Shown here: positions 27,937-61,041 of the stretch, in pieces | Numbering within the stretch: position 1 is the first letter of the stretch | Layout of the letters: each line of letters opens with the position of its first letter | Assembly: GCF_041146345.1 (NCBI RefSeq) | Contig: NW_027191408.1 | Span: forward strand, 1-64,000 | Source: Neodothiora populina | Lineage: Eukaryota | Reading direction: 5' to 3' | Length of the DNA: 64,000 bases | Translations under genes and position numbers: made by a program | The notes under the pieces: generated by a model | Told to the model about the DNA's origin: nothing | What the model saw: the letters and a program-made list of their open reading frames with translations, nothing else | Database searches by the model: none

Positions 27937-28081
27937 CACAGTGGGTGAAAGTATTGGCGTCCCCTGACATCAGAGATTGGCTCTAGCTTTCCCTCACAAA
28001 ATCTTTATCCAAGCTGCTGAGAACGAGGATCGGAGGGCTTATCTGGTAACGTCAGGGGACGCCAATACTGTCACCTACGTG
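27937..28081. mobile_element. MITE-like element with 25-bp inverted repeats
   Basis: 27944-27968 GGTGAAAGTATTGGCGTCCCCTGAC matches the reverse complement of 28051-28075 at 24/25 positions. The interior is non-coding. No clean target-site duplication is visible. Confidence 0.6.
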
Positions 28082-47297: not shown

Positions 47298-48518
47298 ACG
47301 AAATGGTGGGGGGCCTTCCTTTTGTAAACGAATTGCAACCCAGGCTGACTTTTTGTGTCTTGTCTTTGTAGGAAAAAAGCCGAACCCCAAGCTGATTGCG
47401 GCTATGATGGCCACTCTTACCTGATCTCTCTTCAGTTCCTCTATCCTTTTCACCTCAAAAGGTGGGACTTTTATCGGCGTTTGACCCAAGATTGGAGTGT
47501 ATTTTCTTGTCATGTTGGATTATGTCTGATTTGGGTGAACCTTATGATTGTCCTTTGTTTTTTCATCTGCTGTCATACCCTTTCTGTCACTTGTCTCTTG
47601 CTATATCGGAAGTTGTCTCCTTTTTGTTTCCTTTTTCTATCATTTCTCTATCAGCAAAGCATCTATCTGTGCAGTAACGAACCTCACGAACCCAAGAAAT
47701 ATACAATCTACGGCGTTTTCTTTTGGCTTGATGAAATACTGCGCTCGATTTCTCAGAGTATTCAGTTGACCATGGGACATTGCAACATCTCGCTCTTTAC
47801 TCACAAATCAATCGCAACGGTCAAGTAATTGAAACACAGTAAACACCCTCTTGGAATCAGTACATTCACGCAGCTAGGCTCTCTATCCCATCGACCTCTG
47901 TTGAGTACATGAGGAGATGAGGGAATGAGGTAAGCGTAAACTTCAGCATTACTACCATAAGAAGAAGCGAATGGAAAGGAAGTGTCCAACAATCAGTACA
48001 GCTGCTTCTTGACAAGACAGCAAGGAAGGAAGGTCTATCTGGACAATCACGGCTGACGAGCATACACGATGAGTTCCAGAACGACTTCATCTCCTAGATT
48101 GTGATACGTGTACACAACTGACAAGTGCGTTGATAGTACTTCACTACGTTTCTACTGTGGATAAAAGAATGCAAGGAAGCAATGAGAGCACGAAAGAGAA
48201 GATTACGCATCAAGGTAAGGGAACGAAGACAGCGGAAGCGAAGGGGTGGCTGTCATCGATAGTGGTCATGTATATACCACTAGTAGGAAGGTACTCATTC
48301 ATACAGCATCGGGAGTAAGCAAGTAGGCAAGTAAGCAAGTAAGCAAGTCATATTCCCTCTCTTCTTCCAGTGGATCAGACTATACATCAAACTACAAGAG
48401 CAATGAAAGTGTAGGCTACCAACTAGTGAACCATTCACTTGGGTAAGGTAAGACCCCATTTACTCCCCCCCTCCCTAAAATCAACCCATATAACCCCCCT
48501 CAAACCGCCCTATATTCA

Positions 48519-48839
48519 AGGCGCCACTACCCACCGGCTCAGTTGGTGGAGTGGCATCCGACGCCTCAAAAAATCAGTCTTGCGTACAAAAAGCATGAGA
48601 GGTCCCTGGTTCGAGCCACCGCCGCGTGATAGCTCTCCGACAAACCAGTGTCAGAATTTCGCAACAATTCCTCATGCCACCATTTCTCTGCAGTGTGAAG
48701 ACGGCGTACCGGGCCCCACCCCCTCCCTCGGGCTGCGCGCACTTGTACACGAGAGAAATGGTGCTGTACGCGACTGGTTTCTTCCCCTCCTCCGGGTGGG
48801 GGGAAGTTTTGCTTCGGCTTGGGGGAGTCTTGTTTTTTT
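48519..48839 (+). ncRNA. Candidate RNA polymerase III-type structured non-coding RNA, family unassigned
   Basis: ATATAA at 48488-48493, A-box-like CGGCTCAGTTGG at 48535-48546, B-box GGTTCGAGCC at 48608-48617 and T7 at 48833-48839. Nested helices form a three-way junction across 48571-48780. Confidence 0.6.
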
Positions 48840-49395
48840 GTGTATTTCTACATACATACATACGTACAAATATATATATACGTCCAAAAGGTGGGAGGAA
48901 CGAGATAGAGGTGAGATGAGGTGAGATAGGATCAGCAAGAAGTGTGGGGTGGAGGATCAGGAGGATCACTACAGCATGCTGTACCGCACTTCGCTATACT
49001 TCTGTACCTTTGTACCACCGCTCCGTCATGGTATGCCTTGCATACCTTGGGTAAATGGTATCGTTGCCGTAGAAGATCAGGTAGGCAAAGGTAGAGTATA
49101 TAAAGGGCCTGAAACCTCGTCAAAGGTCTGTGTGGATTTCAGTCTCTCTACTCGGGATCTTGAACAGATCTTGAGGGGCGATCTACAGGACACAGGATCT
49201 CGACTCACATAGATCAAGCTGTATTATGGTTTCTCTTGGTATACTTGGGTAGTAGATTGATCGGTCTATTGGTTATCAAGGAGTAAAGATAGAGCAGTAA
49301 CAATACGCTCAAGGGGGGCTGGTAAGGCAAGGAAGAACATAACGATTGAGAACACTACAATAGTGAGTATGAACGGAATTAATAGCAGGTCTACG

Positions 49396-50971
49396 ATGAG
49401 ACGTAGCGTCACTCAGCAAGACATTGAGGCCATATCAGCCCTGTTAAGCAACAACGAAAAGAACCAGCCTCATCCCTCCGCGCCCAGATCCGCGACCCCT
49501 CCCACCCGGACTTTCCCCTCTCGATCAAACGCTGGTCGCGCGCCGCCGAGCTCCCCGCCGGCCTAGCAATCGTGCCCAAATCCGCATCCGACATCTCCAA
49601 AGCCCTAGCCTATGCCTCGCACGCGAACCTCGACGTAGCAGTCAAAGGCGGAGGCCACTCAACCGCGGGCGCGAGCAGTACCTCGGGCGGCCTACTGCTT
49701 GACCTCAGCGGGATGCGAAGCGTCAGAGTGGATGTTGAGAAGCGGCTGATCTACGCGCAGGGAGGATGTCTGTGGTCGGACGTCGACGACGAGGCGTGGG
49801 AGTATGGATTCGCTACGGTCGGCGGCACGGCTGCTGATACGGGCGTTGGAGGCCTGACGCTCGGAGGAGGCTACGGCGCTCTGTCCTCGAGGCATGGTCT
49901 CGTCATCGATTGTCTTGTTGGATGCACCGTCGTGCTGGCTTCTGGGGGGCGTAGTCACGGCATCAGAGACGCAGAACCAGAATCTGTTCTGGGCGCTCAG
50001 AGGCGCGGGACAGAACTTCGGGGTCGCGGTCGAGTTTGCGTTCAAGGTCTTTCCACAAAAGGACGTCTGGGGCGGGATGATGTTGTACCTGCCCACGGAC
50101 GACGTGCTCGAGAAGTTGGTCGAGGCGTTCAACGAGCTGTACACCGTGGAGACAGACGACAAGGGCCACAAGTCCACAAGAAGTGGTGGCAGAATGCTGT
50201 CCATGCTAGGCTTCACTAGACCCCCTACCGCAGGGGACCAGCTCATGGTCCTGACCTTACATATCTTCGACGGGCCGGAAAAAGACGCGAAGCCTCACCT
50301 CCAGGAATTCATCAACGCCGGTCCAGTCGTGAACACGATGAGCTCGATGCCATATAACCAAGTCGGCAGAATGTTAGCGCCGCCGATGGGCATGCGATGC
50401 TCGATGAAAGGCGCGGCCTTCGTCCTACCCGTCCGCACGGAATTCGTCAAAGACATCAGAGACAACTTCGAGACGTTCACTGCCCAGCAGCAAGATGCGA
50501 GCGGAAGCATGTTGATGTGGGAACTGTTCGACTCCGTCAAAACGACTGAGCTAGACAACGGATGTTTCGCCAACCGAGGCCATTATCTCAATGCTCTGGT
50601 CGCGCCGCTGTGGGGAGACGCAGCAAACGACCAGGTCTGCAGGCAGTGGGCGAGAGCCATGAGCGGCATGTTCAAAGCAGAGGCAGAGCGACAGGGTCAA
50701 CAAGCGGCAAAGGGCGTCGACAGCGGCGTCGGGATACGAGGGGACAAGGGCGCCATTTTGCTGTATGGAAACTACGACGTAAGTCCTCTCACTGTCCCCC
50801 TTCTTATCTCGATTCCATCCAAGTCCGAGTCAATACTCAACTAAGCGACGGCAATACGACGAGAAATCAAGAGACATCTTCGGCGCCAACTACGAGCGCC
50901 TGCAGTCTCTCAAAGCAAGATATGATCCCGAGAATGTCTTTGATAAGCTCTTTCCTATCACTCCTGCCTAG
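49396..50971 (+). pseudogene. FAD-linked oxidoreductase (FAD_binding_4 + BBE C-terminus), disrupted as assembled; pseudogene or assembly errors
   Basis: SIKRWS.AAE, VKGGGHS, TGVGGLTLGGG.G.L...HGL..D, LFWALRGAG.NFGV and YGNY..IFG.NY.RL..LK..YDP.NVF. There is an extra G in the G6 run at ~49944-49949, a probable frame change near 49456-49461, and the expected acceptor before CAATAC (50852) reads CGG. Confidence 0.7.
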
Positions 50972-55189: not shown

Positions 55190-57029
55190 TCAAAACCTCG
55201 ACAGCAACCATCCCGTCGCCGAGACACCCAGCCTCACCATCCCCAAACCAAGCCTGAATCCGCCCCAGGCGACCACACCTGCAACTCCAGAAGCAATCAC
55301 CAGCGTCTTTAGATTCCTCCATTCCACGCCCTGATACTTTAATTGTGCCTCGCCCGCCCCTCCCATTTCCGTGATCGTCTCGTACTCGGGCACGTACTTG
55401 AAGTTGAAACTGGTCATTTCGCCCTTGAGTCCGTATTTGCTCTCGACGACGATGGCCCAGAAGATGCGACGCAGCGTGTCGATCTTCCTGCGGTCCCAGG
55501 ATGGTATTGCGCGGTAGAGATAGCACCAGAAACAGAAGAACACGCACTGTCCCGCCATCAGTAGAGAGTAGTATAGACTCGGTCGGGGCAGACCCAGAGC
55601 GTCACAGAGTTTGTTGCCGTTGAGCCATCTCGCGCCTGCAATCAAGAAATCTGCGGATGCGTATCCTGGAGGTTGGTCTTGCAGACACTTGATGATGTTG
55701 TTCGCAAGCACTTGTGACGTGGGTGACGGGTGGATTTCGTAAAGTAGCAAAGACTCAAAGATACGCTTTGCTTGTGCCGTGTTCTCGAAGAAGCCTTCGT
55801 GAGGGCATCCGATGAGGTAGGCCACATAGCGCCAAAGAGCAATGTAATCTACTGCTTCTTGTTCGCGCAGGTACAGGCCCTGGCGTGGAAGACTGAGCCA
55901 GATAATCGAGGCGGAGAAGGTATCGATCGTTGCTATTGAATCAAGGTCGTTGATGGGGATTCCCCATTCTTTGACATCGTAATAACCAGGCCGGCTGGCT
56001 TCGAGCTTCATGATGCGATTTCTCACCGCAGCGTGAAGTAGCCGTACTCGAATTGTCGACGCGAATCCATCGCCACCAGGCTGAATCGACTCGAGACTTT
56101 TAGTGCATTGAAGCACATGCTGTGTGGTCTCGAACAATCGTCCTCGGGCTACCTTGGTCGAGAACCCACCGGTCCGTGCTAATGTCTCGACAACACGTGC
56201 GGCGCCCATTCCGCCAAGTAGCGATTGGTACGCAAGACCAGTTAAGTTGGCTCCTCCATAGCGATAGAACACATCCTGACCACGTGAAATTTGGTCCCAA
56301 TCGACCTGGTTAGAGGTCAGCATACACAGACTCGGATAGTGAACACGAAAATCATGTCAAGAGACTAGACAAAAACTTTACACATACCCACTCAGGCACC
56401 GTATTAAGCTCCTTCCATAACTTGCTCAAAACTTCATCCTCACCAGCATGCCGCTTCAAAAGCTCATACAAGTCCCTCGCGGGCGGTTTCTGTTTGTTCT
56501 CCTGCTTCTCAGCAGACTCATGCACATTCGCATTAGTCACAGGCACTTCCTTCTCTCCCGGCCCGTTTCCAGATACTGTTGGCAGGTCACGAGTGCTATT
56601 CCTTGGGATCTCTCCTACAGATGCGGGCGGGGCGATCTCATTCAGTCGGTTCAGTGCTGCTTCTCCTAGTTCGTCGTAGGTGTATTTTAGGGGATCGTAT
56701 TGTTTCGGAGTCAAATGTTGTGGTGTCAATTCGAACTCGTAACCCCATGCATCTGGATGTTTGCATATCAGTCGATCTGTAATATCGGCAGCGCTGCAAA
56801 CGCTCTTTGGTACGATATGCGGTATAGCCCTCGAATCATATGTTTATAGCCTTCTCTGATATGCAAATCTGTCGCCACCCGGTTCCATGAGAAGATGCAA
56901 GCATGTAGAAGTGACCACAGATAAACATGACAAAATGATGATTTCAACCACGAGAATAAATTCAGAAATCGTCAAGAACTCACTTCTAGTATTTTCTGTT
57001 TTCGTCCTGAAAGGATTTGGCCACGCCAT
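55190..57029 (-). CDS. MpaB/rubber oxygenase (Lcp)-like DUF2236 heme oxygenase with C-terminal membrane segments; introns 56753-56983, 56306-56387
   Basis: WGY.F..T..H, VPEWVDWDQI.RGQ.VFYRY, RL.ET, RVRLLHA.VR, G.PIN..D...T and YIALWRY..YL.G motifs. Confidence 0.88.
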
Positions 57030-58175: not shown

Positions 58176-61041
58176 TCAATTCGTAAGCGGGTTGGACCGT
58201 TTGAAGAACTCTTTGATTCCTCGTCGATCGCCAGAGTTGGAGGGCTCTAGCTGCACACTGCGTTCGTATAATGCCTGTAGCAAAGATGAGGTCAGCATAT
58301 GAGATATCAGAAGCAGTCCGTCTTTGATGTACTCACATCGTCGTCCTTGGTCAACGATAGGTTCAGGATAAGCGCTCTGAGCTCGTCTTGCCTGGGCGTC
58401 AGGCCCAGATTGTGATAAGGTTGTCCCTGAGCCCGCTGTATGCCGACAATGACCTCTCCCATGACCTCAAACATCTGCCAATTGATCCTGCCGTCTGTTT
58501 CACCAACGAAGGTCCTGTTACCTTCCTGCGAGCCCACGAGATCGCGTAGTGGTAATGGAACGAACGGAATGCGCTCGCCGCTGGAGTTTTCCCATGCAAG
58601 ACGGTATGCGGAATAAGATTTTGTGGGTGACATGAGGATCTCTAACTTCATCCAGTCTTTCTGGATGCCGTGGGGCAGAAGTTCGCGTGTTGCATTGAGC
58701 CGATGAATTGGGGCGCTATTGATGCCTGCTAGGAATGCGCCCAACGAGTTGTAATTGTTGAGATCGCGCAAACGTCTTGCGACTTGCATCAGCTTCTCTA
58801 GCATCAACACTCGATGCTTTGGTTTTTCTCGAAGTAATATGAAGTTTGCGACCCAATCGCGGAGATGGTTGAAGTGGTCAATCATGCGATTCACGTGTAC
58901 GAGAGATTTGCATGCAGCTTTTTGCGAGGCGGGTAGCGAAACGTGACGAATTAGATCGCGGGGCCTTATCGAACTGAACATGATCCAATCGATGCGCGTG
59001 AGTTCGCGGGCGATGATGTCGTTCGGCATATCGAGCAAAGTCCGCCAGTGCATCTTATTGATCGGCACTTTTGGGACAGGCGACAAAGATATAGATTGTC
59101 GGCGCGCTATGTCCACTGTGTGAAGCAAGCCAAAACTGGAGGGGAGAGGTGTGCCGGAGATGGTTTCGCTTGGTGATCTGGCTCTATCGAGGGACAGATT
59201 TCCCATAGTATCGCTGAACTGGAAATCGGTATCGTCAAGCATTGAGCTTGACCTCGAGTGAAGTGTTGTGCCATCGTCGAAGCCTTCTTGAAGCTCGCGA
59301 TTTTTATCGCAACAAGCCCAGTCGGTGTCATCATCATTTGCGACCACGTCGAGGTCGGCACTCATCTCACGTGCTGCGGCAGAGAAAATTCGGGTATTCG
59401 AGAGTTTGATAACAAATGTGCCCATTCTGCGACGAGTTCGAGGATGTGCGAAGTCTCCAGGGTAGGTCCCGATCCATTGTTCAATCACAGATAGGTAACG
59501 CAATTGCGATATAGTGCGGGACATGAAAGCAACTTCTGCGCTCTCAAGGGCCTCAAAGCGATGCACAATCGCCTCCAAGAGCTGCCCTGGAGCGGCAAAT
59601 TTCCTATATAGAGCCAGAAAGATGGCCCTGAAACGACTGTCTGCTTTCGTTTTGGGAAGAATAAGTAGCCGGTCAACGAGGGTGTCGAACGTGGTGCCTC
59701 TGTCATCAAGAAGCGTCTGAGAAGCTTCCATGCCCGTAATGTCATCTTCAGAGGCCGATGTGAGACCTTCCGAGTAACTAGCAGAATCCTGTGATTCGTC
59801 TAAGTTGAGGAAGGAGCGGTGCATGCCACCATCCTTGACCGGCCCATTACTTGTCTCTGCTCCCACAGTGGAGTCGTGGCGAGCATGAGGTAAATCTCTA
59901 TTTAGCACCGAGTAGTCGGAGCTCGCTCTTGAGTGGTTAGGGTGCGTGCTTGCCCGGGATATTACATTCAGTTGACCAGTGGACGAAAGTGTGCGACGGC
60001 GGAGTGCAGCCGGGCTTTTCGATGCTAGATTCCGGTTAGCCATTATTCTTTGAGATGACATTGGTGCGCGTCTTCGATAATGCTTACCTGCATTCATCGA
60101 GCATATAGTCTTTATAAGCAGCAATACTCCTTGTTTCTGCAAATCTGTATTTGAAGTGGATATTTGTAGTGTATTCAATTTCCTCAGAACAGCCTTGGCT
60201 CTTTTCTCCGTGTCGCTTGGATCGACCTGTCGCTCTGAATGGGTGGTGTCGCATTTGCATGATACGAGCACAGAGGGAAGGAACGACTTGTCTATGGCAT
60301 CTGCGCACGAAATCGGTAAGTGCCAAGTTAAGGACGATCCATGTGTCGCAAGTTCACTTACTCAGCGTTTCGGGCACATCTTGGAAGCTGGCTTTGTCGC
60401 TAATGTCGTAAAGGGTGAGTACGCCATCGACCCGAGGCATGCGACTGTCGCCGACACTATTAGGCCATTTGACCTCTCCATCATCTTCTATATCCACGTC
60501 GGCAATGGACAATTCCACCAGGCGGACTAAGCAAGGCCCATTCTCGATTGTCACTTGCTTTGTGACGATCGGCGAGGTTGGCGGCGTCGAAAGGCCAAAC
60601 GAATGGCGGATGAAGGTTGATTTGCCCACTCCAGGGGCGCCCAATACAACTAGATTGATGTCGGGAAGAGGCTCTGACTCGGTCGGCTAATTGGAGAGTG
60701 TTAGCACTAATCTAACCCATGCAGAGTAATTGGGACCAATGAACCTCTACGACTTGACAATAAGTATGTGCAGCAGCAGACAATCTACTGGAGGAAGCTC
60801 GGGCTCGTGGTGTAGTGGGAGAAGTGGGTGATAGCGAAGTGGGCGTTTTGGGGCTCTGTGGTCTGCTCCTCCGCGACCCTTCATACACAACAAAATTGCG
60901 AGCGCTACTCGATGAACTTGGTCTTTGGAAAGTCGACGTCGGACTGATTTGAGGTGACGATTGTATATGTTTCAACACTGGACGTTGCCCAGAAAGCGCC
61001 GGAATAGACTCCCGTCGGATGTCCCGTGTCCTGTTGGGCAT
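58176..61041 (-). CDS. RasGEF (REM + CDC25 domain) with an N-terminal Ras-like P-loop domain, multi-exon; start uncertain
   Basis: LVVLGAPGVGKSTFI, GVLTLYDISDKASF and LVSCKCD; FLALYRKFA.P..LL (REM); IARELT..D...F..I, NYNSL.A.LAG and IPFVPL.LRDL (CDC25). Confidence 0.85.

Follow-up and report, generated by a model that had tools for sequence, protein, structure and literature searches.

The element at about 48462–48820 (+ strand) of the 64-kb stretch of DNA analysed in this study (hereafter the window) is multi-copy, diverged and dispersed, and unique DNA is excluded. We tentatively regard the locus, with somewhat less than even confidence, as one copy of a low-copy, lineage-specific, SINE-like short interspersed repeat with a type 2 Pol III promoter. 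A dispersed family, oriented A and B boxes, the lack of an internal T4 and the T runs at the 3′ end together make a Pol III-type SINE the best reading. The evidence comes from contigs of public DNA runs, from motifs and their chance level, and from the fold of the element and its conservation among the copies.

Copies of the element in public DNA contigs

Five public runs were listed as containing this stretch, all of them DNA, and the contigs of four were aligned on positions 48000–49400; the counts of other letters and gap letters given here are lower bounds, with differences near the ends of pieces excluded. In run X1, the flanks of the element are covered by one contig each (depths 26.1 and 30.1), and these own-locus contigs both end within it (at 48634 and 48672), as contigs do at a repeat. 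Further X1 contigs align across the element at 80–96% identity among the pieces listed. At least three other versions, 84–92% alike, lie on contigs of 6.4–15.5 kb with flanks of their own. Record 4 (48519–48662) matches in the middle of a 9.6-kb contig and has at least 16 other letters and at least 7 gap letters, record 5 (48527–48648; 6.4-kb contig) has at least 5 and at least 9, and record 8 (48672–48814; 15.5-kb contig), the closest paralogue, has at least 11 of each. Record 6 is a piece of 94 nt (48605–48701), records 2 and 3 are pieces of 53–55 nt within 48473–48548 with at least 4 and at least 2 other letters, and in a contig of depth 27.6 positions 48567–48604 are replaced by two letters.

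Four contigs overlap at 48557 and read three different letters (T, A and G), with a summed depth of 115.2, taken as 26.1 + 29.8 + 31.7 + 27.6, and five contigs overlap at 48618–48622 with a summed depth of 157.8. The highest summed contig depth across the element falls in the bin 48517–48563, where the leader hairpin sits. Records 4, 5 and 8 run into unlike flanks, and the loose ends at 48519, 48662, 48814 and 48820 lead into separate flanks, indicating at least four versions of the 5′ half and at least two of the 3′ half. The preliminary description had taken the locus for a single, unassigned RNA gene, a view that is not supported now that diverged copies are seen on several contigs, the flanks of which differ. 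It had also named a SINE as the alternative, to be recognised by dispersed copies with target-site duplications; the dispersed copies were found and the duplications were not.

Runs X3–X5, which are labelled as another organism, contained only pieces of 158–160 nt, extending from CCGG (48535) to CTGCAG (48692). These include the version of the window (0 differences) and the variant of X1 record 5, and one of the three runs also has a variant G48624A. The pieces look like reduced-representation fragments of the same species, with no independent relative among them, and suggest that those samples contain the same fungus or a strain nearly identical to it.

No second copy was found inside the 64-kb window, where BLASTN gave chance matches of 12–17 nt only. 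A 20-nt word from the A-box hairpin matched a single locus among metagenome contigs, on a high-GC unrelated contig, and was rejected as a chance match. When the ORF at 48439–48921 (+), which runs through the element, was used as a probe of a protein collection, none of 22 candidates scored, and no relatives of the ORF emerged.

Limits of the repeated unit

The repeated unit is about 350 bp in length, from approximately 48462–48473 to approximately 48814–48820. Paralogous contigs align from 48473 (records 2 and 3), none aligns in the bin 48423–48469, and the upstream loose end of record 4, compared by eye, matches 48490–48521 at about 24 of its 30 letters. The unit starts at least 46 nt 5′ of the predicted Pol III start and 62 nt 5′ of the A box, and a start at 48462 or 48473 means that the TATA-like region is included. 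At the other end, two paralogues diverge at 48814 and 48820, just past the 3′ hairpin and the T4, and the summed depth stays at about double the baseline until approximately 48880 (to the bin 48846–48892). The module of 3′ hairpin and T run is duplicated in tandem (48790–48811 and 48812–48840, +), and its second copy (CTTCGGCTTGGGGGA...) ends in T7. The two copies are 80% alike where 48790–48804 is compared with 48812–48826, and this duplication implies that T4 and T7 are homologous. The two paralogues appear to have the first module only.

Several of these limits argue against the SINE-like reading. No direct repeat of at least 7 nt that could be a target-site duplication brackets the unit, the ends of which are approximate and the paralogue flanks of which are loose ends of 30 letters. 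A retroposed Pol III transcript should lack its upstream region, so the presence of at least 46 nt upstream of the start in the repeat speaks against such an origin. The 5′ part occurs on more contigs than the 3′ part, whereas LINE-mediated 5′ truncation gives the reverse. Because the fit to a SINE is incomplete, a gene family and a MITE stay alive as rivals.

The first of these rivals is a cellular, non-mobile family of Pol III structured ncRNA genes, duplicated at the DNA level with their own promoter and terminator and producing a functional RNA; we consider it unlikely, if still the least unlikely of the alternatives. It would account for the 46 nt of upstream sequence in the repeat, which are about as conserved as the body in records 2 and 3. 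Paralogue homology ends after the hairpin and T4 (48814 and 48820), so that the unit resembles a stretch from promoter to terminator.

The second is a MITE-like non-autonomous DNA transposon, in which the C-rich and G-rich ends would be terminal inverted repeats (TIRs), the fold would reflect hairpin potential, and the A and B boxes would be coincidental or captured. This also appears unlikely, and we rank it after the gene family. The C-rich 5′ end ACTCCCCCCCTCCC (48462–48475, +) would be the left TIR, with GGGTGGGGGGAAGT (48794–48807) as the right one; the arms are complementary at 12 of 14 positions and coincide with the limits of the unit, and a second arm match is given by ACTCCCCC/GGGGGAGT (48462–48469 and 48821–48828). 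The C-rich terminus may resemble Stowaway-type termini, and an element moving at the DNA level would explain the "upstream" region inside the repeat. However, the similarity of two paralogues extends beyond the right arm by 7 and 13 nt (to 48814 and 48820), and the flanking letters are TT on either side, or TA on the left alone, which makes no clean duplication of TA or of 3 bp. Both arms consist of low-complexity C or G tracts, of which the region has several, and the most repeated part of the element is 48517–48563, not the termini.

A third alternative, which we regard as improbable, is another DNA-level repeat (a solo LTR, a Helitron fragment or a small segmental duplication) or chance motifs and a chance fold in unique DNA. 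LTRs can contain a TATA-like box with a structured region behind it, and the copies end at different 3′ positions (48814, 48820 and approximately 48880). Nevertheless, a search by eye found no TG...CA ends with matching 4–5 bp flanks, on which ground a solo LTR was rejected, and the loose ends of the paralogues are mutually different and contain no primer-binding-site-like sequence. The element lies on multiple contigs, which excludes a chance pattern in unique DNA, and the fold and a 12-bp stem, described below, exceed those of shuffled sequences.

Promoter-like motifs and putative terminators

A TATA-like ATATAA (48488–48493, +) lies about 30 nt 5′ of the predicted Pol III start (48519–48524), within the repeated unit; records 2 and 3, which span 48473–48548 around it, have 4 and 2 other letters. 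The A-box-like CGGCTCAGTTGG (48535–48546, +) has one mismatch to TRGCNNAGTNGG and is buried in the leader hairpin, and the B box GGTTCGAGCC (48608–48617, +) is located within arm 1 of the body. At the motif level, the two boxes are on one strand and 61–62 nt apart. T4 (48807–48810, +) directly follows the GC hairpin and T7 (48833–48839, +) ends the second 3′ module. These are the only runs of four or more T between 48519 and 48841, both at the 3′ end and none internal. The TATA-like box, A-box-like word, B box, GC hairpin, T4 and T7 listed in the preliminary description are therefore all present on the + strand, and the Pol III-type layout that it had recognised (a TATA-like box, A/B-like boxes on one strand, no internal T4, and a terminal hairpin with T runs) stands. 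A (TACA)5 simple repeat (48849–48868, +) comes after T7 and is followed by a (TA)n-rich stretch to approximately 48888; it may be a tail or a mere flanking microsatellite. Since T4 and T7 precede (TACA)n, a Pol III transcript would not include that tail.

Within the window, the A box (at most one mismatch) was observed 39 times against 22 expected and the B box once against 2.31 expected, and either box alone is not beyond chance. An A and a B box on the same strand approximately 60 nt apart are expected about 0.02–0.04 times per 64-kb window, by arithmetic from the box counts. That a pair so rare by chance lies inside a dispersed repeat supports the SINE-like reading. It counts against the MITE, in which correctly spaced and oriented A and B boxes in a given 350-bp element would be a coincidence of about 1 in 10,000 by our estimate. 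Elsewhere in the window, at 60808–60843 (+), the A-box-like words TGGTGTAGTGGG and TAGCGAAGTGGG occur 24 nt apart, the second being the exact consensus, and ARAGORN made no tRNA call there.

If the locus is a SINE-like repeat, TFIIIC would bind the A-like box (48535–48546) and the B box (48608–48617), and TFIIIB would bind the TATA-like region near 48488. Pol III would then start near 48519–48524 and stop at T4 (48807) or T7 (48833). The predicted product is an RNA of 290–320 nt in which a branched body lies between a 5′ hairpin and a 3′ hairpin that ends in oligo-U. Copies may have spread to other sites and would now be decaying, with the promoter-bearing 5′ part best kept.

Secondary structure

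The element begins with a leader hairpin (48520–48565, +) formed by GGCG/CGCC, GCCACT/AGTGGC and CCACCGGC/GTTGGTGG around a 3-nt loop. It continues with a three-way-junction body (48571–48780, +), the closing helices of which are 9 and 7 bp long and the two arms of which are arm 1 (48593–48677, +) and arm 2 (48678–48763, +), the latter with a perfect 12-bp stem. A GC-rich 3′ hairpin (48781–48806, +), followed by T4, is the last part common to the paralogues. Checked by coordinates, all 12 helices named in the preliminary description pair as claimed, with junction linkers of AAAA, 0 and C. The leader hairpin, the two closing helices and the two arms are also found by ViennaRNA. Inside arm 1 the pairing is ambiguous, as the minimum free energy (MFE) structure uses other pairs there than those first proposed; the explicit structure of that proposal has −54.8 kcal/mol versus −76.7 for the MFE. 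An alternative pairing also exists in which AAACCAGT in arm 1 (48642–48649) is perfectly complementary to ACTGGTTT, the 3′ closing strand (48773–48780), and competes with the 5′ closing strand.

With ViennaRNA, the body (48570–48781) folds at −77.4 kcal/mol (z −3.93), a value equalled by none of 200 shuffles, and the full proposed span (48519–48841) has a z of −2.86. The best z among the spans (−5.01) belongs to the unit 48462–48811, in the MFE structure of which the inverted ends close into a terminal stem. Perfect 12-bp inverted repeats with a spacer of 3–120 nt occur at three loci in the window versus a mean of 0.3 in 30 shuffles. The strong fold that had been claimed is borne out by the z-scores of body and unit and by the 12-bp stem, all of which exceed shuffles.

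These values can be read in favour of two of the rivals. A strong fold (z −3.9 to −5.0) would be expected of a structured RNA gene family, and seven G-U pairs favour the + strand. For a MITE, the closing of the arms into a terminal stem in the best-scoring span would be fitting, as would the roughly equal folding of both strands (z −2.86 for the full span vs −2.43 for the minus strand) and the presence of two other small perfect inverted-repeat loci in the window. One of the latter, at 27950–28069, is a perfect inverted repeat of about 19–21 bp (AGTATTGGCGTCCCCTGAC... vs ...GTCAGGGGACGCCAATACT) around some 80 nt of spacer. This small hairpin or MITE-like element has no sequence relationship to the element at 48462–48820. 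The other, at 56760–56867, has perfect 12-bp inverted arms (TTTGCATATCAG/CTGATATGCAAA) separated by 84 nt and is the third such locus in the window.

Conservation of the structure among copies

Some differences between the copies respect the fold, as a gene family with a functional RNA would predict. In record 8, the pair G48713–C48733 of arm 2 has become A-U, the one compensatory pair seen, C48738T turns a G-C into a G-U pair, and the apical loop has lost 8 nt. In record 4, the pair altered by A48588G survives as G-U. Both the 8-nt and a 3-nt deletion sit in loops, and most changes in arm 1 lie in loops of the fold first proposed. Other differences count against this family. The 7-bp closing helix of record 5 is damaged by a deletion at 48582, C48583A and a deletion of 48588–48590, and the 38-nt replacement (48567–48604) in the contig of depth 27.6 removes 29 paired positions, so that arm 1 and both closing helices lose their 5′ strands. 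Record 8 lacks one nucleotide of the 12-bp stem (48754) and one of the closing helix (48773), and its C48740G breaks an inner helix of the fold first proposed; A48656C breaks GAATT/AATTC. By our estimate, one compensatory pair among the seven listed substitutions would arise by chance about 1 time in 20, and the gene family has no Rfam match.

Three paralogues span the 5′ closing strands, which are intact in the first, damaged in the second and missing from the third. The near-perfect three-way junction had been put forward as a feature of the RNA, but as a conserved feature of the family it does not hold up, the closing helices being damaged or deleted in two of the three informative paralogues. 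Records 4 and 5 are both unchanged over 48590–48617, a block that includes the B box, and have 7 and 3 substitutions plus indels over 48555–48589; for these two records the comparison covers one strand of the helices. In these alignments, conservation is uneven and the promoter-like blocks are kept best, a point in favour of the SINE-like reading.

A related possibility, to which we give a low probability, is that the copies represent lineage-specific Pol III structured RNA genes of about 300 nt in a poorly sampled Dothideomycete, each with its own TATA-like region, a hairpin containing the A box, an internal B box, a 3′ hairpin with oligo-U and a branched body partly held by compensatory change, either as a fungal counterpart of multi-copy Pol III RNAs such as Y or vault RNAs or as a SINE under domestication. 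The interest of the locus would rise if the copies were expressed, structure-conserving genes.

Relation to known RNA families

Rfam, its Afu_* families included, gave no match at the gathering score over the whole 64 kb, and at E up to 10 over 48300–49000 (701 nt) it gave five matches, all at chance level and to unrelated families; a stretch of 129 nt likewise had nothing above chance. The Rfam tRNA model found nothing at E up to 10 on either 701 or 129 nt, and ARAGORN found no tRNA genes in the window. In agreement with the preliminary description, Rfam and ARAGORN gave no match to tRNA, SRP, RNase P/MRP, U snRNA or other Rfam families. Readings as RNase P/MRP, SRP, U6, U6atac, an snRNA with an Sm site, H/ACA and C/D RNAs were rejected, as hallmark motifs are absent by eye on both strands and Rfam is silent. 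The element is not recognisable as a tRNA, 5S, SRP, RNase P/MRP, U snRNA or snoRNA.

A tRNA head that is recognised neither by the covariance model nor by ARAGORN argues against a tRNA-derived SINE, and the label "tRNA-derived" would seem, on sequence grounds, to come from the box motifs alone. The block 48590–48617 may resemble the anticodon-to-T-arm part of a tRNA-Ala. Literature searches yielded no Pol III ncRNA of filamentous fungi with such features, and no repeat of SINE or Pol III type from this branch of the Dothideomycetes.

Genomic context

The element occupies a microsatellite-rich gap in a region that is ordinary and rich in genes. The ORFs next to it belong to ordinary genes of fungi (Rgp1, an aldehyde dehydrogenase fragment, ATG22, ribosomal S17e, RasGEF, Mrp51 and others), and no transposon proteins are found among them. 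The best named relatives of the Rgp1 ORF are from Dothideomycetes and 42–53% identical, which makes the host a rather isolated Dothideomycete. On one side of the element is a microsatellite-like array (AGTAAGCA)4.4 at 48314–48348, and on the other are a 10-nt unit repeated 2.6 times at 48902–48929 and a 9-nt unit repeated twice at 48951–48968.

Comparison with known systems

The element is like MITEs in being approximately 350 bp long and non-coding, with putative, imperfect 14-nt TIRs at the limits of the unit and strong hairpin potential, and in being dispersed, low-copy and adjoining genes. It differs from them in the lack of a clean target-site duplication and in paralogue homology that passes the right arm, and it is branched instead of a single long hairpin and contains oriented Pol III boxes and terminators.

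In yeast RPR1 and SNR52, which are single-copy and encode RNase P RNA and a C/D snoRNA, both boxes lie in a leader that is removed. Like these genes, the element has a structured body preceded by a 5′ hairpin that contains the A box, and it shares with them a T-run terminator and a TATA-like box near −30. Unlike them, it is multi-copy, has no Rfam match to either family, and has its B box inside arm 1 of the body. The removable promoter leader of RPR1/SNR52 style that had been suggested does not fit in the form proposed, as the B box falls within the "mature" part.

Few SINE-type or Pol III-type repeats have been described in fungi. Fungal tRNA-related SINEs are described as low-copy and located in gene-rich regions, AfuSINE2 of Aspergillus fumigatus measuring 140–493 bp, with degenerate A/B boxes, non-cloverleaf heads and long tRNA-unrelated bodies, and with a simple-repeat 3′ end in one family; Mg-SINE, Foxy and nrs1 are listed there as further fungal SINEs (PMC5063351). 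The 3′ end of Mg-SINE mimics that of its LINE (PMC2104539). Unlike fungal SINEs, the element has no target-site duplication that we found, includes approximately 46 nt upstream of its start, has T4 and T7 ahead of the simple repeat, and has no parent tRNA that can be named. It is similar to fungal SINEs, as described, in being short and low-copy in a gene-rich setting, with degenerate boxes and no cloverleaf head, and in having a long tRNA-unrelated body and a simple repeat near the 3′ end.

A unique RNA of an undescribed class is thus replaced by a repeat family of an expected kind, which is a modest single finding. With few diverged copies, a strong branched fold and kept promoter blocks, such a family would be a convenient small system, possibly of use for studying the spread and decay of Pol III elements in compact genomes and for asking if any copy has turned into a functional RNA. 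The SINE that the preliminary description had offered as its own alternative fits the element better than a unique RNA of an undescribed class, and the family is probably new but of a known general kind, the comparison with fungal SINEs being one of descriptions.
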